DNA of 64,000 bases from a bacterium. Its GTDB lineage: Bacteria; Myxococcota_A; UBA9160; UBA6930. Positions 36,943-43,157 of this stretch are shown here, one piece after another. Position numbers and translations under genes: made by a program. The stretch spans positions 366 to 64,365 of the forward strand of contig JAAELW010000079.1 in assembly GCA_024226235.1 (NCBI GenBank). Reading direction: 5' to 3'. The notes below the pieces were generated by a model. The model ran no database searches. It was not told where the DNA came from and saw nothing but the letters and a program-made list of their open reading frames with translations. Numbering within the stretch: position 1 is the stretch's first letter; each line of letters starts with the position of its first letter.

Positions 36943-38523
36943 TCAGGGAGCCAGGTATTGGGCGGCCAGCTCCGCTGCGTTGAGTCCGCCGGCCATCGCG
37001 TTGCTGACACCTCCCCCCGGACGGACCCAATGGCCACACAGAAAGATGTTCTCGACGGGTGATCGCTGCGGGATGGAATCCTGCACCTGGTTTGGCGAGT
37101 AGCGCCAACCCACGTAGGCACCGCCGCGATTCTCGGTAAACCGCTCGATCGTGACGGGTGTCGCCAGCTCCAGCACCTCGGCGTGCTTCTCGAGATCGGG
37201 GATACCGAGAGCCCGCTCCATCTTCTCGATCAGCTGCGGGAGCAGGCGATCCTTCAGGGCCTTGTAGGCGCGACCGCGGTGCCGATCCGTACCGAGCGCT
37301 TCTTCGTAGATCTCCGGTGACGCGAGAAGCATCGTAGCCACGATGCTCTTGCCCTTGGGGCAACAGGTCGGATCGATATTGCTGTAGATCGTCGCCGCCG
37401 CCCAGGGAAGATCCGAGTAGTCGCCGCTGACGGCGCCCTTCACGAAGAATGGTGAGTCGCCGCCAGCCTTCCAACTGCGAGAGATCTCGCAGTCGGTGAT
37501 GCCCATGGCGGGCAGGTCCAGGTCGAGACCCGCGAAGAGAGTCAGAGCGGAGATGCTCGGGCGCCGCTGGTTGATGCCTCGTACATACTCGTCGGGCAGG
37601 GTCCCCTGCGGACACAGTCTGCTCGCAAATGCAGTCACATCCCCCCCGTGAATCACAGTACGCGCCCGCGCCGAGATCGAGCGGCCTGCTCTCCGTCGCG
37701 AGACGATGCCCGAGGCACGGCCCCCGTCGAAGCTGATCTCACTGACACCCTGGTCGAGAAGCAGCGTGCCACCTCGCTCCTCGAAGAGCTCGGCGAGCAC
37801 CTGGGTCATCCGCCCCGAGCCACCCTTCGGATAGTAGGCCTGGCCACCGCCGACGCGAAACACCAGATCGCACATGATGGCAAGACTGGCATCGAGTTCG
37901 TTCGAACTCGTGCCCAGGAAACCGCTCGGGATGGCGAGCATCAGCTCGATCAGATCGGGATCCGAAACGTGTTCCCTCAACACCTCCGGAGCCTTCCTTC
38001 CGCCGAGGCCTGAATAAAGCTCCACTTCTTCGGCCAGCTTGCTGGATTCCTCGACAACCAGGTCCTCGCCGGCGTCTTGAGCCGTCAACAGGGCCTCGGC
38101 CATGGAACCGTACTTCCCATAGAAGCTGCGTATGCCCTCCTGCTCGTCGGGAAAGTTCTTGATCAGCATCTCGACGTGTCCGTCCAGAGCCCAGGGAAGC
38201 GTGACATCCGTGCCGCGCTCCTCGTCCACCCTGCGCCCGAAATCGTCGAGATGAATGAACTCGACGCGCTCCTGTGCGCCGATCCGCTCGAGAAGCCGGT
38301 AGGTCATCCCCCCCGGAGCACAGCCATTGATCACGTGGTTCGACGCCTCGAAGCGGTAGCCTTTGCGCTCGAAGTTCACGGTGCATCCACCAGGTACGCC
38401 GTGTTTCTCGAGCATCAGCACGCGATGCCCAGAAGCCGCCAGTGAGTTTCCCGCCATCAGGCCGGCCAATCCCGCACCGATCACGATCGCGTCGAACTCG
38501 CCGAGGTCTTCGATCTCAGTCAT
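36943..38523 (-). CDS. CrtI/phytoene-desaturase-family (RetSat-like) NAD(P)/FAD-dependent oxidoreductase
   Basis: FDAIVIGAGLAGLMAGNSLAASGHRVLMLEKHGVPGG, with C-terminal ..FLCGHWVRPGGGV. ATG at 38523 is preceded by GAGGAG. Confidence 0.8.
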   Translation of the reverse strand: MTEIEDLGEFDAIVIGAGLAGLMAGNSLAASGHRVLMLEKHGVPGGCTVNFERKGYRFEASNHVINGCAPGGMTYRLLERIGAQERVEFIHLDDFGRRVDEERGTDVTLPWALDGHVEMLIKNFPDEQEGIRSFYGKYGSMAEALLTAQDAGEDLVVEESSKLAEEVELYSGLGGRKAPEVLREHVSDPDLIELMLAIPSGFLGTSSNELDASLAIMCDLVFRVGGGQAYYPKGGSGRMTQVLAELFEERGGTLLLDQGVSEISFDGGRASGIVSRRRAGRSISARARTVIHGGDVTAFASRLCPQGTLPDEYVRGINQRRPSISALTLFAGLDLDLPAMGITDCEISRSWKAGGDSPFFVKGAVSGDYSDLPWAAATIYSNIDPTCCPKGKSIVATMLLASPEIYEEALGTDRHRGRAYKALKDRLLPQLIEKMERALGIPDLEKHAEVLELATPVTIERFTENRGGAYVGWRYSPNQVQDSIPQRSPVENIFLCGHWVRPGGGVSNAMAGGLNAAELAAQYLAP

Positions 38524-38710
38524 GCAAGGCTCCTCTTGGTGCCGATCCGGCGTCAGGGCACAGGGCTCTCTCCGCACGGAATCTGGAATCAGGCCCCCGA
38601 CGATAGACCGGTTCGGGATCTCCGGACAAGTGGACCAATATCCACCGGGTCCGGGGACCCCGCTGCAGGCTGTTTCGTGACCGGGAGCCCGAACCTGGAG
38701 ATATCCCCTG

Positions 38711-39259
38711 CTAGTCGATGAACGCCCACAGAAGCCGCCGGCTCTTCGCGTCGAGGCCGTCCGGGTTCGGCACCAGGTAGAGATCTCCAGCGACATCCTT
38801 GATCAGGAGTCCGTCCCCTGACATCCCCCGGGGCCACTCATCCCGAAGCGTCTGGAAGCTCCGCATGCCCTGGGCGGTCCGGACGCGGAATCTGCGGATC
38901 TCGATCTCCTCTTCCACTTCGAGCACGGCCTCGACGACGAACACGAAGCCCGCCTCGAGAAGCGCCGTCCCGAGCGCCCGCTGCGCCGTGTACGGGAGAT
39001 CGCTGAGATCGCGCACGAGCGCCACCTCGTCTTCGTCGCGATCGCGGAGCGAGACGAAGCGAGTGGGTTTCGACCAGGGGAAGCAGCGCACCGGGCGCAC
39101 CGAGCATGTGCGATCGGCAGTGCGTGCCCACAGCTGACCGTCGGAGCCGCGCCAGAGTTCGACGCCCGGCATCGGCCGCCGCGGAGCCTGATGGGTAACG
39201 GCCCGTCCCCGCCGCGCGCGTGTCAGGTCCTTCTTCTCTCTCTTCTGGATATCGGTCAT
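38711..39259 (-). CDS. DUF1854 family protein
   Basis: Pattern CFPWSKPTRFVSLRD..DEVALVRDLSDL......LLIKDVAGDLYLVPNPDGLDAKSRRLLWAFID matches my recollection of DUF1854. It starts 10 nt after the ABC gene stop. Confidence 0.7.
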   Translation of the reverse strand: MTDIQKREKKDLTRARRGRAVTHQAPRRPMPGVELWRGSDGQLWARTADRTCSVRPVRCFPWSKPTRFVSLRDRDEDEVALVRDLSDLPYTAQRALGTALLEAGFVFVVEAVLEVEEEIEIRRFRVRTAQGMRSFQTLRDEWPRGMSGDGLLIKDVAGDLYLVPNPDGLDAKSRRLLWAFID

Positions 39260-39269
39260 GGTCGTCCTC

Positions 39270-41576
39270 TCACTCGTTCTCTTGACCTTGGAGTTGCTGC
39301 TGCAACTGCCAGAGGTGCCGGAATGTCCCGTCGGGTTTCTCCAGCAGTTCGGTGGGCGTCCCACTCTCGGTGAGCCGCCCGTCTTCGATCACGAAGATGC
39401 GATCGGCTCTTCGCAAGGTGGAGAGCCTGTGCGCGATTGCGAACACGGTGCGCCCGGAGGTCAGTCGCTCGAGAGCTTCCTGGATCTTGAACTCGGTCTC
39501 GGTATCGACCGAGCTGGTCGCCTCGTCGAGCACCAGGATGCGCGGATCGTGCAGGATGGCCCGGGCGATCGAGATGCGCTGACGTTCCCCGCCAGAGAGC
39601 GTCTGCCCGCGTTCACCTACCATCGTCTCGTAGCCACTGGGCAACTTGCAGAGGAAATCGTGAGCGTTTGCGGTCGTGGCGGCCTCGACCACATCGTCCA
39701 CACTCGCCTCCGGCGAGCCGTAACGGATGTTCTCCATCACCGTCCCATGAAAGAGGTACGGATCCTGGAGGACCATCCCGAGCTGCCGCCGGAAGCTGCC
39801 CGTTTCGAGCTGCCGCACGTCGATGCCGTCGATCAGCACGCACCCGCCGGTCACGTCGTAGAAGCGTGCTAGCAGGTTCGTCACCGTGGTCTTCCCACCG
39901 CCGGACGGGCCGACGAGACCGACCATCTCCCCGGACTCCACCGCGAACGAGATCCCCTGTACCACCTGGCGCACGCCGTCATAGCCGAACGTCACGTTCT
40001 GGAACTCGACCTTGCCTTCGAGGGGCTCGAGCCGCACGGGGCGACCCTTGTCGACCACCTGGGGCTCCGTATCCAGGACCTCGAAAATGCGATGGGCCGA
40101 GCTGGTCGCCCGGTTCATGATGCGCGCCATCTGCCCGATGATCTCGATCGGCTGGATGAACATGGTCATGTAGAGCAGGAACGCGATGAACGTCCCCGAA
40201 GTGAGAGTGGCCTCCAGGCCGGAATCGCCCGGCAGCACCCGCGGCAGAGCGAACACCCAGACGAGCACGACCATCCCGCGCACTGCCAACATCAATGCCG
40301 GCCAGAACGACGTCCAGACTTCGTGAATTCGATTGAACTCATCGGTCACGTTGTGATTGCGAGCACCGAAACGCTGCTTCTCCCTGCCCTCCTGATGGAA
40401 GGCCTTCACGACCTTCATGCCCGGAACCGTGTCGGACACGATGTCCGTCAGCGCGCTCCACTTGCGCCAGGCCCTCAGGAACAGGCGGTTCATTCGATGG
40501 CCGTGGATGTAGACCCACAGACACAGGAACGGCACCGGCAATGTCATGATCAACCCGAGCTTCCAATCCAGGTGGATCAGCACCGCCGAGAGCCCGACCA
40601 ACATCACCAACGAGAGCGATACATCGACGATCCCGAGCGCCAGGAACTCCCAGAGCCGGTCCGTATCCGCAGTCACCCGGGTGATCAGGCTGCCGGTCTT
40701 CTTGCGCGAGTAGAACGAGAGCGACAGCTTCTGCAGGTGCTCGTAGAGCTCGGTGCGGAGATCCCGCGCCACGTGTTCGCCCAGTACGGCCATCCATCGC
40801 AGGCGCGCCCAGGCCGCCAGCTGCCGCAGGAAGTAGCTTCCGGCGATGGCGCCAACCGCGGTCCAGGCGACTTGCTCCACCTCGGCGAGGGTCTTCACCC
40901 CATCCTGGACCGGACGAATCACCTCGTCGACGAGGAAGCCCGTCAGGTAGGGCGGCACGAGCGAGAGCGCTGTCAGTACCGCTGCCGATGCCATGCCGAA
41001 GATGACCTTCCCCCGATAGGGCTGCAGGTAGCCCAGCAGGCGCCAGACGACGGCCAGATCGTTTCCCGCAACGAGGGCCTGCGCCTCCCGGATGGGCCCG
41101 GCAACGCTGTCCACATACTCTCCGTCAGCATCCGCAGAAAGTTCCGCCGGCGAGCCTTCGAGAGCGCGTTCGACCAGGAACTGCAGACTTTCCATCGCAC
41201 GCCGCTGACGGTGGGTAAAACGCACCCGGGCGAGCGCCGGCTGCCCGGGCTCACCGAGAAAGCGCAATGTATTGCAGGTGAGGCCCGGATCGAGCCGCAT
41301 CGCGTGGATCGCCTCGCGGGCAAACGTCTGCACTTCGAGCTCGCCGCTGACGGCACGGGCAATGGCCACATGGCGCGGCCCGAGGGCGACCCACGATTCG
41401 GTGAGCTTCAGGCTTCCGTCGAGGTCGGCCAGCGCATACAGCTGAACCGGATCGCCACCCCAGCCATCCTCGATGGCCTGGCGCACGGCTCGCGGCATCG
41501 AGATGGGCTGATCGGTGTAGCGCTCGAGGATCTGGCGGTCTGTATTGACGGGTGTTCGGGTCGAGTGGGTGAGCAT
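39270..41576 (-). CDS. ABC exporter, fused permease/ATPase, with a ~170-aa N-terminal cytoplasmic extension
   Basis: Six-helix TMD, Walker A GPSGGGKTT, signature LSGGERQRI, Walker B ILVLDEATS. The first ~170 aa have no TM helix. Confidence 0.9.
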   Translation of the reverse strand: MLTHSTRTPVNTDRQILERYTDQPISMPRAVRQAIEDGWGGDPVQLYALADLDGSLKLTESWVALGPRHVAIARAVSGELEVQTFAREAIHAMRLDPGLTCNTLRFLGEPGQPALARVRFTHRQRRAMESLQFLVERALEGSPAELSADADGEYVDSVAGPIREAQALVAGNDLAVVWRLLGYLQPYRGKVIFGMASAAVLTALSLVPPYLTGFLVDEVIRPVQDGVKTLAEVEQVAWTAVGAIAGSYFLRQLAAWARLRWMAVLGEHVARDLRTELYEHLQKLSLSFYSRKKTGSLITRVTADTDRLWEFLALGIVDVSLSLVMLVGLSAVLIHLDWKLGLIMTLPVPFLCLWVYIHGHRMNRLFLRAWRKWSALTDIVSDTVPGMKVVKAFHQEGREKQRFGARNHNVTDEFNRIHEVWTSFWPALMLAVRGMVVLVWVFALPRVLPGDSGLEATLTSGTFIAFLLYMTMFIQPIEIIGQMARIMNRATSSAHRIFEVLDTEPQVVDKGRPVRLEPLEGKVEFQNVTFGYDGVRQVVQGISFAVESGEMVGLVGPSGGGKTTVTNLLARFYDVTGGCVLIDGIDVRQLETGSFRRQLGMVLQDPYLFHGTVMENIRYGSPEASVDDVVEAATTANAHDFLCKLPSGYETMVGERGQTLSGGERQRISIARAILHDPRILVLDEATSSVDTETEFKIQEALERLTSGRTVFAIAHRLSTLRRADRIFVIEDGRLTESGTPTELLEKPDGTFRHLWQLQQQLQGQENE

Positions 41577-41626
41577 CGGATGGGCTTTCTTGCCCGGGTC
41601 CGAGCCCTGGAAGGTCGATCAAACGA

Positions 41627-41662
41627 AAACGGCCTTCCGGGCTCGCACCCGGAAGGCCGTTT
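41627..41662 (-). terminator. Rho-independent terminator (minus-strand direction)
   Basis: Perfect 15-bp stem AAACGGCCTTCCGGG / CCCGGAAGGCCGTTT with a 6-nt loop. On the minus transcript it is followed by UUUUCGUUUG. It sits between the small ORF stop (41677) and the ABC start (41576). Confidence 0.85.
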
Positions 41663-41676
41663 GAAACGGCGGATTC

Positions 41677-41859
41677 CTAGGGTGCTGGGATTCTGCGAAT
41701 GGGCTGGTGCTTCTTGGCCGGACCACGGGGAACCCCGAAGAGGGACAGGCGATCGTCACCGATGAGGATGACGGGGGCGCAACACGCACCAGCGGCCGTG
41801 ACGACCGCATCGCGTTCCCGGATTTGCTGGCTCCGGGTCTGCCTCATGATCTGACTCAT
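41677..41859 (-). CDS. Small basic ORF (60 aa) with an adjacent Cys-Cys pair; hypothetical
   Basis: Sequence MSQIMRQTRSQQIRERDAVVTAAGACCAPVILIGDDRLSLFGVPRGPAKKHQPIRRIPAP. GGAGG lies 14 nt upstream, a promoter-like element upstream, and a strong terminator directly downstream. Third-position GC is about 73% by my count, similar to neighbouring genes. Confidence 0.45.
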   Translation of the reverse strand: MSQIMRQTRSQQIRERDAVVTAAGACCAPVILIGDDRLSLFGVPRGPAKKHQPIRRIPAP

Positions 41860-41893
41860 GGTCTGTGGGTACACCTCCGGCAGTTGAAAATGC

Positions 41894-41922
41894 ACCATAG
41901 TCGGGTGCCCAGGCCAAAGCAA
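41894..41922 (-). promoter_or_regulatory. Sigma70-like promoter candidate for the small ORF / ABC leader
   Basis: Minus strand reads TTGCTT (41922-41917), 17 nt, then TATGGT (41899-41894). It is about 35 nt upstream of the small-ORF ATG. Confidence 0.45.
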
Positions 41923-41954
41923 GCGAGAACTTGGACGCGCTACCCTCGACCACC

Positions 41955-43157
41955 ATGTGTGATACCGCTGTCCGAGTGCTTCCGGATCGCGTGCTGTTCG
42001 CGAAGAACTCGGACCGCGATCCGAACGAAGCCCAGCTCTTGGAGTGGCAGCCGGCCCGCGAGCACCGGGCCGGCTCGCCGTTGCGCTGCACCTGGATCCG
42101 GATTCCCCAAGCCCGGCGAACTCATGCGGTGCTGCTCTCGCGGCCCTTCTGGATGTGGGGCGCCGAGATCGGCGCAAACGAGCATGGCGTGGTGATCGGC
42201 AACGAGGCCGTATTCACCAATCAGCCCCTCGGACCGGCCAGCCTGACGGGGATGGATCTGCTTCGACTGGGGCTCGAGCGCGCATCGAGCGCCGAGCAGG
42301 CCCTCGCCGTGATCACCCAACTGCTCGCAGAGCACGGCCAGGGCGGAGGCTGCGGACATGAAGACCGCTCCTTCTCGTACCACAACAGCTACATCATCGC
42401 GGATCCTCGCTGCGCGTTCGTGCTCGAGACCGCCGGCCAGGAATGGACCAGCGAGCGGGTCGTAGGTGCGAGAAGCATCTCGAACGGACTCACGATCGAG
42501 CCCTTCGCAAACCGATACATGGATGGTCTTCGGACGAAGGCGGCCAGCGCGCGAGCGCGGCGCGCTTGCACCGAAGCACGCGCCGCCGTTGCCAAGACCC
42601 CTGCCGACATGATGGCGCTCCTGCGAGACCACGGGAGCCACCACATCGGGCCGCAATACGCGAAATTCAATGGCGGAATGGGTGCACCGTGTGTCCATGC
42701 AGGGGGCCTCGTAGTGAACTCACAAACGACGGGTTCTTGGGTCGCCGAACTCTCCCCGGATCGGGTTTCCCACTGGGTCACCGCTACCGCAGCGCCCTGC
42801 ACATCGCTGTTCAAGCCAATCGCGGTGGACGAACCCCTCGACCTGGGCCCGGAACCCACGGACCAATACGATCCGACGACACTCTGGTGGCGACACGAAC
42901 GCCTGCACCGGCAGTTGATGCGGGACCCGGAAGGCCTGATGAGCGCGATCGTCCAGGAACGCGACCACATCGAAGCGGGTTGGCTGGGGGAGCCTCCGAA
43001 CCCGGAAAAGGCCTTTGCCGAAGGTGACCGGCTGCTTGAAAATTGGACCGACCGCGCATTGGCTGCCAGCATGTCGGACCGGCGGCCCTTCTGGGCCCGC
43101 CGGTACTGGAAGAGTCGCGCCGATCGAGCGGGCTTCCCGGGTGATGGAAGGGGCTGA
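41955..43157 (+). CDS. Ntn-hydrolase, peptidase C69 / secernin-like (N-terminal Cys nucleophile)
   Basis: ATG at 41955 gives MCDTAVRVLPDRVLFAKNSDRDPNE, with Cys directly after Met as in C69/secernin-type Ntn hydrolases. Later block WGAEIGANEHGVVIGNEAV. Confidence 0.7.
   Translation: MCDTAVRVLPDRVLFAKNSDRDPNEAQLLEWQPAREHRAGSPLRCTWIRIPQARRTHAVLLSRPFWMWGAEIGANEHGVVIGNEAVFTNQPLGPASLTGMDLLRLGLERASSAEQALAVITQLLAEHGQGGGCGHEDRSFSYHNSYIIADPRCAFVLETAGQEWTSERVVGARSISNGLTIEPFANRYMDGLRTKAASARARRACTEARAAVAKTPADMMALLRDHGSHHIGPQYAKFNGGMGAPCVHAGGLVVNSQTTGSWVAELSPDRVSHWVTATAAPCTSLFKPIAVDEPLDLGPEPTDQYDPTTLWWRHERLHRQLMRDPEGLMSAIVQERDHIEAGWLGEPPNPEKAFAEGDRLLENWTDRALAASMSDRRPFWARRYWKSRADRAGFPGDGRG

Follow-up and report, generated by a model that had tools for sequence, protein, structure and literature searches.

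On the minus strand of a 64,000-nucleotide stretch of DNA from a bacterium of the Myxococcota_A lineage (GenBank assembly GCA_024226235.1, contig JAAELW010000079.1, positions 366 to 64,365; called the window below), a promoter-like element, a 60-codon open reading frame (ORF) and a GC-rich hairpin stand directly in front of a gene for an ATP-binding cassette (ABC) exporter, which is followed by a gene for a DUF1854 protein. Does the short ORF encode a peptide in its own right, or do the ORF and the hairpin together form a leader that regulates the exporter operon? The original prediction, made from the letters of the window, had left two readings: (a) a small, highly expressed peptide, exported or of the ribosomally synthesized and posttranslationally modified peptide (RiPP) kind, whose terminator sets its stoichiometry relative to the exporter and (b) a regulatory leader, either a leader-peptide attenuator or of riboswitch type. 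We observed that the unit is kept 5' of the same operon in two phyla, that its reading frame is conserved without its peptide and that the last ORF codons are the 5' strand of a predicted structure that excludes the terminator. Thus, the attenuator half of reading (b) held up: the leader is probably a ribosome-mediated (leader-peptide) transcription attenuator controlling the ABC-exporter/DUF1854 operon.

The leader in the window

Coordinates are those of the window, and all leader features are read on the minus strand.

41894-41922 (-): promoter-like element, with the -35 hexamer TTGCTT at 41922-41917, a spacer of 17 nt and the -10 hexamer TATGGT at 41899-41894
41874-41878 (-): Shine-Dalgarno (SD)-like GGAGG, 14 nt 5' of the leader ATG (41859)
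41677-41859 (-): leader ORF (upstream ORF, or uORF) of 60 codons plus UAG (TAG at 41679-41677), with the C terminus ...IRRIPAP-stop
41775-41790 (-): conserved element GGUGCGUGUUGCGCCC inside the ORF, encoding GACCAP
14 nt (-): spacer between the ORF and the hairpin, GAATCCGCCGTTTC
41645-41686 (-): antiterminator hairpin, with a predicted fold of -21.6 kcal/mol (z = -5.1)
41620-41662 (-): intrinsic-terminator-like hairpin, with the stem AAACGGCCTTCCGGG (41662-41648) and CCCGGAAGGCCGTTT (41641-41627)
41602-41614 (-): downstream segment CCUUCCAGGGCUC, in read-through RNA a possible pairing partner of the terminator loop and 3' arm (41644-41633)
39270-41576 (-): gene 1, ABC exporter, with its ATG at 41576 and 768 amino acids
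38711-39364 as listed (-): gene 2, DUF1854 protein (PF08909, E = 9e-32)

The promoter, the GGAGG, the 60-codon ORF with GACCAPV in its center and the perfect hairpin 14 nt after the ORF are all present as the original prediction had described them. The hairpin has a GC-rich stem of 15 bp, a 6-nt loop (UGCGAG) and an unpaired tail, UCGUUUG (41626-41620). Its energy of -31.5 kcal/mol (z = -6.1) was equaled by 0 of 200 shuffles, and the whole leader also folds better than shuffled sequences (z = -3.6). The hairpin was no dispersed repeat element within the window. Two details needed adjustment. There is a U-rich tail, and the run that had been quoted for it, UUUUCGUUUG, shares the last three U with the stem; the ABC gene does start at the ATG at 41576, and the distance from the tail to this ATG is 44 nt, not 45 nt.

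The promoter-like element matches the Escherichia coli consensus at 7 of 12 positions and is weak by that standard. A generic scan for consensus promoters and terminators in the window called neither. The terminator went uncalled because there are too few U's directly 3' of the stem. Taken on the window sequence by themselves, the promoter and the terminator are suggestive; because the generic scan called neither, we drew the support for both from related loci.

A leader family conserved in front of ABC-DUF1854 operons

We fetched orthologs by similarity of the ABC protein alone. They came from metagenome-assembled genomes (MAGs) labeled Deltaproteobacteria or Myxococcales (75 to 83% identity) and from Gemmatimonadales MAGs (64%). 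The leaders of these orthologs share one layout: a promoter-like element, an ORF of 28 to 74 codons ending in AGCACCCUAG and a hairpin with a U-rich tail, whose 5' arm contains a conserved GGCCUUYCGGG followed by UGC. In this set, chosen from protein similarity alone, the element or a variant of it was found in 14 of 19 distinct upstream regions. Eleven carry the element itself (10 with the canonical GCACCCUAG, and L061 with GCG-CCC), 3 carry informative variants (L186, L187 and L056) and 5 lack it (L005 to L008 and L188).

One of the regions without the canonical motif, from a Chthoniobacterales MAG (L007:927-1030), has a different uORF of 24 codons, MIEHFFSVDAARAVNPGMFVGSVR. Its stop codon abuts a GUCCGG-CGCA-CCGGAC hairpin, which is followed by a pyrimidine run. 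The operon may here have a leader of independent design.

A metagenome search with a DNA pattern made from the two blocks gave at least 120 further stretches. The pattern fixed both hexamers (GCACCC and GGGUGC) and CCC-UAG in advance, and the representative set comprises 87 loci that are less than 90% identical. Among the matches listed, a gene for the ABC N-domain lies 3' of the motif in 114 of 115 loci, and DUF1854 lies downstream in 49 of the 50 loci long enough to show it. We then left the window out and made a covariance model, R1, of AGCACCCUAG, the spacer and the GGCCUUYCGGGUGC terminator from 86 loci. In the window, R1 found a single sense-strand match, at 41693-41621 (-), with 55.9 bits and E = 6e-12; its other match, of 29 bits on the plus strand, is the palindromic stem itself. 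Against about 45 unrelated ABC loci, R1 gave no matches.

The promoter and the terminator are both well kept among the relatives. Of 51 related loci, 45 have a TTGNNN-N16-18-TANNNT element 32 to 57 nt 5' of the leader ATG versus 4 of 51 shuffled controls, and the spacer is 17 nt in 38 of those elements. Myxococcota-like relatives carry (A)GGAGG 9 to 17 nt 5' of the leader start. All 87 representatives have the hairpin with a U-rich tail; 10 to 12 of the 12 stem pairs are kept, and the 9 nt after the stem contain 5 to 7 U's in 83 of the 87. One pair of the terminator stem varies, and it does so in a compensatory manner: C-G (56 loci), U-A (28 loci) and U-G (3 loci).

In Rfam 15, the sense strand of the window matched only a terminator-like fragment far under threshold. 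Eight orthologous loci gave no match at the gathering score, and the L061 leader gave none at E <= 1. By these comparisons, the putative leader family is new, unannotated in Rfam, Pfam or NCBIfam and widespread in soil Gemmatimonadota and Myxococcota-like bacteria.

Three metagenome contigs of the collection (L056, L057 and L058, with protein P0028 labeled Gammaproteobacteria) have an ABC gene that ends at 378 amino acids. In all three a phage-type integrase gene follows directly on the opposite strand, and L056 also has MobC/NikA-like genes. The ABC gene seems to have been interrupted by a mobile element. All three contigs keep a divergent leader, with GAA-CCC-UAA and a different hairpin.

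A conserved reading frame with a variable peptide

We found several signs that the frame of the leader ORF is maintained. In 85 of the 87 representatives, the frame that ends in UAG runs for 40 or more codons without a stop, compared with 42 and 63 for the other two frames. Of 60 occurrences of a start landmark (ATGAT., ATGTAY and similar) that was picked regardless of frame, 57 share the frame of the UAG. The ORF takes 19 different lengths between 84 and 222 nt, every one a multiple of 3, and the ATG triplets of the leader region are distributed 184/53/16 over the frames. Among 27 unique leaders of 48 codons, the entropy at the three codon positions is 0.31, 0.32 and 0.52, and several codons vary synonymously only. 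The change is mostly synonymous in codons 1 to 13 and in the last 20 codons (0.07/0.13/0.37 by codon position in these last 20), and codons 14 to 28 are essentially free. Judged by these patterns, the leader ORF appears to be under selection for translation.

The peptide itself is a different matter. Leader peptides are 28 to 74 amino acids long and cannot be aligned between subfamilies except for two features, an N-terminal hydrophobic-T-S/P-x-x-R-R motif and an x-Ala-Pro ending. The original prediction could match the window peptide to no family, and the searches agreed: a homolog search with the 60-amino-acid peptide detected none, and Pfam and NCBIfam have no family for it or for five other leaders. 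In gene-finder calls from Gemmatimonadales, the ORF of the commonest subfamily appears only as "hypothetical protein." The original prediction had proposed to compare the ORF with the RNA structure in homologous loci, and the answer of that comparison is a conserved frame, a hypervariable peptide and a compensatory terminator pair.

Within the ORF, the 3' half of GGUGCGUGUUGCGCCC, U[GA][CU]G[CU]CC, is found in 57 of the 87 representatives. It is read in frame 1 in 31 of them (...GRIAS...), in frame 2 in 24 (...VRPG/VCP...) and in frame 0 in 2, the window included. Because it is read in three frames across lineages, the element is conserved at the RNA/DNA level. The Cys-Cys of the window peptide (GACCAPV) is thus a by-product, since an RNA-level element encodes it. 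In the window, the local hairpin at GGUGCGUGUUGCGCCC did not reach significance (-7.2 kcal/mol, z = -1.5). In relatives the counterpart of the element is GGGCGUAKUGCGYCC, and its 3' half (GCGCCC, GUGCCC or GCGUCC) is complementary to GGGUGC if G-U pairs are allowed. It could serve as a pause hairpin or as a second antiterminator strand.

A second block lies close to the stop codon. Loci of the Gemmatimonadales type have a purine-rich, SD-like GGAGG/GAGGA 3 to 7 nt 5' of GCACCC (for example, L064:2389-2397). The block is kept in different frames (read as GG, RR or RG), about 7 nt from the Pro codon of the P site, and it might anchor the terminating ribosome. The window does not have this stop-proximal block.

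A predicted antiterminator that excludes the terminator

A check for alternative antiterminator pairings, which had also been proposed, turned up a three-tier hairpin built on GCACCC:GGGUGC. As its last two codons the ORF has GCACCC (41685-41680), the reverse complement of GGGUGC (41650-41645), a hexamer that spans the uppermost three pairs of the terminator 5' arm and the first three bases of the loop. In the window the fold spans 42 nt, from AGCACCC to GGGUGC. Its tiers are an outer helix, GCACCC:GGGUGC; a UA bulge consisting of the first two bases of the stop codon; a middle helix, GGAA:UUCC; and an inner hairpin, GCCGUU-UCA-AACGGC (41670-41656), which uses the base of the terminator 5' arm. 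Because the inner hairpin consumes this base, the whole 5' arm is sequestered. In these models the antiterminator and the terminator are mutually exclusive.

The three-tier fold was predicted in 25 of 25 diverse relatives, with different spacer and inner hairpin sequences and with a middle helix in one of two registers (UAGGAAG versus UAGAAGG types). In the minimum free energy (MFE) structure of the nascent transcript, before the 3' arm has been made, GGGUGC pairs with the stop-proximal GCACCC in 72 of the 87 representatives. With the 3' arm added, the terminator is preferred in 84 of the 87. Since the terminator wins once its 3' arm exists, the antiterminator must act kinetically, as in classical attenuators. 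The RNAalifold consensus of the whole 3' module recovered only the terminator. The base before GCACCC is A, whatever the codon.

The variants of the ortholog set show which parts of this design are retained. L061 has GCG-CCC-UAG, with the Ala retained and a G-U wobble in the helix. L186 has GCA-CCG-UAG, a 5' arm of ...UUUCGG-UGC and a 3' arm of CCGAAA; because these changes are coordinated, L186 keeps the Pro, the antiterminator (GCACCG:CGGUGC) and the terminator. In L056, with GAA-CCC-UAA and a different hairpin, the Pro-stop and an ACCC:GGGU pairing are retained.

What lies 3' of the terminator differs between lineages. In the window, the terminator 3' arm and CCUUCCAGGGCUC can form a hairpin at 41646-41597 (-26.8 kcal/mol, z = -4.0), and the MFE structure of the full leader consists of the antiterminator and this CCUUCCAGGGCUC hairpin, with the terminator not used. 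Read-through RNA of the window is thus predicted to stay in the antiterminator fold, because the terminator 3' arm can pair with CCUUCCAGGGCUC. Such segments, of the CCGGGUC type, are found in only some relatives. In loci of the Gemmatimonadales type (L002, L061, L064 and others), a segment immediately 5' of the terminator, CGUGAUCC, pairs with the SD region of the ABC gene, GGAUCACG, which directly precedes the ABC ATG (in L064, 2432-2439 with 2490-2497). The CGUGAUCC:GGAUCACG helix has 8 to 13 bp, and its flanks covary (CCG/CGG, GUCG/CGAC, UGUG/CACA and CGCG/CGCG). In the antiterminator state of these loci, the spacer segment GGAUU takes the anti-SD strand instead. Transcription and translation of the ABC gene would therefore switch together. 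This long-range helix was not found in the window.

Four loci of the commonest subfamily (L124, L146, L148 and L184) have an extra insert of about 30 to 40 nt between the terminator and the anti-SD partner. The insert is a GC-rich inverted repeat, CCCCCUCUCCUGA...GGAGAGGGGG, and may be a small repeat element.

A proposed leader-peptide attenuator

Put together, the leader has a short ORF whose translation is supported computationally, a predicted terminator between this ORF and the first structural gene and a predicted antiterminator that overlaps the ORF and is exclusive with the terminator. We propose that it works as follows. Transcription would begin at the promoter near 41890, and the 60-codon leader would then be translated. 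The 5' strand of the antiterminator is GCA-CCC-UAG followed by GAA, and the 3' strand would be the terminator 5' arm. A ribosome at the end of the ORF during synthesis of the terminator would cover GCACCC, the stop codon and about 10 nt further. The antiterminator would then be blocked, the 15-bp terminator would form and transcription would end before the ABC gene. Ala-Pro-UAG would be a slowly terminating context, in which the ribosome is probably held while the polymerase makes the terminator. If the ribosome lags, has stalled earlier or has never loaded, GCACCC would pair with GGGUGC as soon as the latter is made, the three-tier antiterminator would take the whole 5' arm and the polymerase would read through into the operon. 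By analogy with BmrB-bmrCD, translation stress or a ribosome-targeting antibiotic could be what delays the ribosome. Alternatively, the ribosome may stall in the conserved N-terminal motif.

Similar logic is known from other leaders. As in trp-type four-segment attenuators, the position of the ribosome on the leader ORF would pick between mutually exclusive hairpins, and a ribosome at the leader stop would favor the terminator. Unlike in the trp type, the window terminator is the middle pairing (2:3) and the predicted read-through state is 1:2 plus 3:4, and the leader lacks tandem regulatory codons. We also considered a 1:2 pause hairpin of the trp kind, which would sequester GCACCC until GGGUGC appears, and rejected it; GCACCC is unpaired in 61 of 87 loci.

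The closest parallel for the end of the ORF is pheL. In enterobacteria, pheL has the invariant end UUC_CCC_UGA, whose Pro-codon C's form pairs with G's in the antiterminator and pause stems, so that any change needs compensation in several stems, the terminator included; "Some role for poor termination" was left open (PMC3082878). The leader described here resembles pheL-pheA in having a short, apparently translated ORF followed by a predicted intrinsic terminator, and it resembles pheL in its nucleotide-invariant end, with the Pro codon CCC directly before the stop in what would be a poor termination context. It differs from pheL, which has about 15 codons, in its length of 28 to 74 codons and its UAG stop; in having no run of regulatory codons (Phe in pheL) and hence no obvious cognate amino acid; in that no 1:2 pause hairpin was found; and in that the regulated genes encode an ABC exporter and a DUF1854 protein rather than a biosynthetic enzyme, in other phyla.

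For the regulated gene, the nearest parallel is BmrB of Bacillus subtilis. Translation of this leader peptide and antibiotic-induced ribosome stalling control the ABC exporter bmrCD by attenuation; the leader of about 50 codons is cotranscribed with the MsbA-like exporter, its translation is required and stalling leads to read-through (PMC4191407). Here, too, a leader ORF lies 5' of an ABC exporter, with predicted alternative stem-loops that include a putative intrinsic terminator. Unlike in bmrB, where the terminator lies within the coding region, the ORF stops 14 to 33 nt before the terminator. There is also no sequence similarity, and here one gene encodes the exporter, which has an additional N-terminal domain and a DUF1854 partner.

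Several observations weigh against the attenuator. First, across subfamilies there was no run of codons for one amino acid (the endings are GGGGG, RRR, RRKR and PAP), so the sensed signal is not evident; such a run characterizes only the amino-acid-biosynthesis subclass. An Arg- or Gly-codon sensing attenuator was likewise rejected, the enriched residues varying by subfamily and the purine-rich block lying in different frames. Second, the antiterminator falls about 10 kcal/mol short of the terminator in folding energy and must win kinetically. Third, the core helix GCACCC:GGGUGC is almost invariant and therefore offers no covariation, and both of its hexamers were set by the metagenome search pattern. 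Extension of the helix 5' of GCACCC was no better than with shuffled partners (1.36 versus 1.26 ± 0.05), and in L187 the sequence GGGAGC puts an A-A mismatch into it; both L186 and L187 need caution because their assemblies carry many frameshifts. Fourth, in the window the distance of 14 nt from the SD to the ATG is long, and the U tract is interrupted and was not listed by the generic terminator scan. Finally, termination, read-through, the direction of regulation (a ribosome at the stop being OFF) and the slowing of release by the Pro-stop are steps that we infer.

Alternative explanations

The alternative that survives best keeps the same RNA switch and moves the regulated step to the time that a ribosome is arrested at Ala-Pro-UAG. 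The C-terminal 20 or so residues in the exit tunnel would inhibit release to a degree that depends on a ligand, a factor or a pulling force; long arrest would give termination, and fast release would give the antiterminator. All canonical loci end in CCC-UAG, the C-terminal Pro-stop expected of termination-arrest peptides, which the pattern fixed for the metagenome set. Among the loci fetched by protein similarity, 9 have GCA-CCC-UAG and L061 has GCG-CCC-UAG, and the Pro-stop is also retained in the divergent variants, as CCG-UAG in L186 and CCC-UAA in L056. TnaC (PMC8450073) and the uORFs uDF_NAP-stop and uA_NSP-stop (PMC10987492) have been shown to stall ribosomes at termination, and toeprinting placed the stop codon of the stalled NAP-stop and NSP-stop uORFs in the A site (PMC10987492). 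Like those leader peptides, the peptides described here end in Pro-stop, as x-Ala-Pro-stop. Like arrest peptides, they also appear, within a subfamily, to have about 20 C-terminal residues under constraint at the peptide level, namely the purifying selection on the last 20 codons of the 27 unique 48-codon leaders. The constraint on the first 13 and the last 20 codons would fit an arrest module plus a second functional motif. Because of it, we keep in view a variant of the attenuator in which the regulated step is an arrest at the stop that depends on the nascent chain, or a stall in the N-terminal motif. The purine-rich GGAGG about 7 nt 5' of the P-site codon, present in most loci of the Gemmatimonadales type, also favors an arrest sensor.

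Against this, residue -3 varies (R, G, P, K, E, H or T), the C-terminal sequences are unlike between subfamilies and the window lacks the stop-proximal GGAGG. The triple constraint on the RNA can by itself explain the invariance of GCACCC, as has been argued for pheL (PMC3082878). The direction is also unusual. TnaC and the NAP-stop and NSP-stop uORFs block Rho or expose a ribosome-binding site, so that a stall means ON, whereas here a stalled ribosome sits on the antiterminator strand, and arrest would mean OFF, the opposite of every characterized arrest-peptide regulator. The downstream genes are also neither Sec/YidC nor tryptophanase, unlike in those systems. We therefore regard an arrest sensor as possible, at a chance well short of even. 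That it represents a new class of termination-arrest peptides (x-Ala-Pro-UAG), in which the duration of the stall directly sets the efficiency of an intrinsic terminator and arrest is OFF, seems to us unlikely. Such a class would perhaps be tuned by a ligand or factor acting through the N-terminal hydrophobic-T-S/P-x-x-R-R motif or through the tunnel-resident 20 C-terminal residues.

A riboswitch-like or protein-binding leader RNA would have AGCACCCUAG, GGGUGC and GGGCGUAUUGCGYCC form a site that stabilizes the antiterminator, with the ORF incidental. This would account for the several blocks that are kept at the nucleotide level whatever the frame, for the A that precedes GCACCC regardless of the codon and for the better-than-shuffled folding of the whole leader; an antiterminator weaker than the terminator might also need stabilizing. 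The strong selection for an open in-frame ORF, with its conserved start and third-position wobble, argues against it, as do the lack of an Rfam match in the window or in the eight orthologous loci and the terminator being the sole RNAalifold consensus structure. Because the ORF shows clear selection for translation and Rfam gave no match, the riboswitch-type half of reading (b) found no support, and we consider a pure riboswitch very unlikely.

Reading (a), a stand-alone gene for a small protein or peptide (an exported substrate, a RiPP-like precursor or a small regulator) with a terminator that sets its stoichiometry to the exporter, can point to a complete transcription unit of promoter, SD, ORF and terminator directly 5' of the exporter, to purifying selection on parts of the peptide within one subfamily and to gene callers that predict such ORFs, all as "hypothetical," but it is barely credible given a hypervariable peptide, an ABC protein devoid of a peptidase domain and neighboring genes that are not conserved. 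We found no conserved precursor family, no C39 peptidase and no conserved adjacent modification genes of the kind that define RiPP and bacteriocin loci; the window peptide has no detectable homolog; its Cys-Cys is an RNA element read in other frames elsewhere; and the stop codon lies inside the structure that competes with the terminator.

Two further candidates that involve the stop codon were rejected. The first was a programmed +1 frameshift at CCC_UAG. In 71 of 78 loci no +1 stop occurs before the end of the terminator, but frame 0 beyond the UAG is about as open (median, 33 codons); in addition, the +1 stops have no fixed position with respect to the ABC start, and a spacing of about 7 nt is unsuitable for the SD-like element. 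The second was read-through of the UAG with translational coupling to the ABC start. In 17 of 48 loci the ATG and the next frame-0 stop overlap (as ATGA), a pattern that follows subfamily structure, and the distinct distances by frame class (11, 7 and 4) are not significant. The open frames and the apparent 3-nt periodicity are due to GC content and subfamily structure.

The ABC-DUF1854 operon and its neighbors

According to Pfam, the ABC protein consists of ABC_membrane, ABC_tran and an extra N-terminal domain of about 170 amino acids, which is not a peptidase. Its best NCBIfam match is NF052233, "cyanophycin metabolism-associated ABC transporter," at 632 bits, under the cutoff of 880. For gene 2, the best NCBIfam model is the "cyanophycin metabolism-associated" DUF1854 protein, also below its curated cutoff. 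From fitness data in betaproteobacteria, Price et al. proposed that DUF1854 and this ABC protein export an amino-acid polymer (bioRxiv 10.1101/072470). No cyanophycin synthetase that would tie the operon to cyanophycin was found among the ten largest ORFs of the window. The DUF1854 ORF as listed overlaps the 3' end of the ABC gene by 95 nt, and an ATG near 39259 (MTDIQK...) is its likely start.

The genes that flank ABC-DUF1854 orthologs differ from locus to locus. In the window, the next ORF (36943-38796, minus strand) encodes an FAD-dependent, phytoene-desaturase-like oxidoreductase whose start is probably well inside the listed ORF (MTEIEDL...). The divergent neighbor (41931-43157, plus strand) encodes a C69/C45-like N-terminal nucleophile (Ntn) hydrolase. 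Its listed TTG start is probably wrong, and an ATG at 41955 gives Met-Cys..., which suits an N-terminal Cys nucleophile. The hydrolase gene and the leader share an intergenic region of 378 bp, and the hydrolase is not a conserved neighbor in other loci.

Implications

The leader provides a concrete regulatory element for the ABC-DUF1854 pair, whose function is only guessed at and for which efflux of a cyanophycin-like amino-acid polymer has been proposed (bioRxiv 10.1101/072470). Identifying the inducer of read-through would hint at the purpose of the transporter. The family adds a probable leader-peptide attenuator to those known and does so in little-studied soil phyla (Gemmatimonadota and Myxococcota), where annotation pipelines miss it or call its ORF "hypothetical." With its invariant Ala-Pro-UAG in the antiterminator strand, it is a natural system for asking whether a Pro-stop "parks" ribosomes, a question that pheL left open. 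If the leader did belong to an arrest-peptide class, an intracellular signal would govern how strongly a proposed amino-acid-polymer exporter is expressed.

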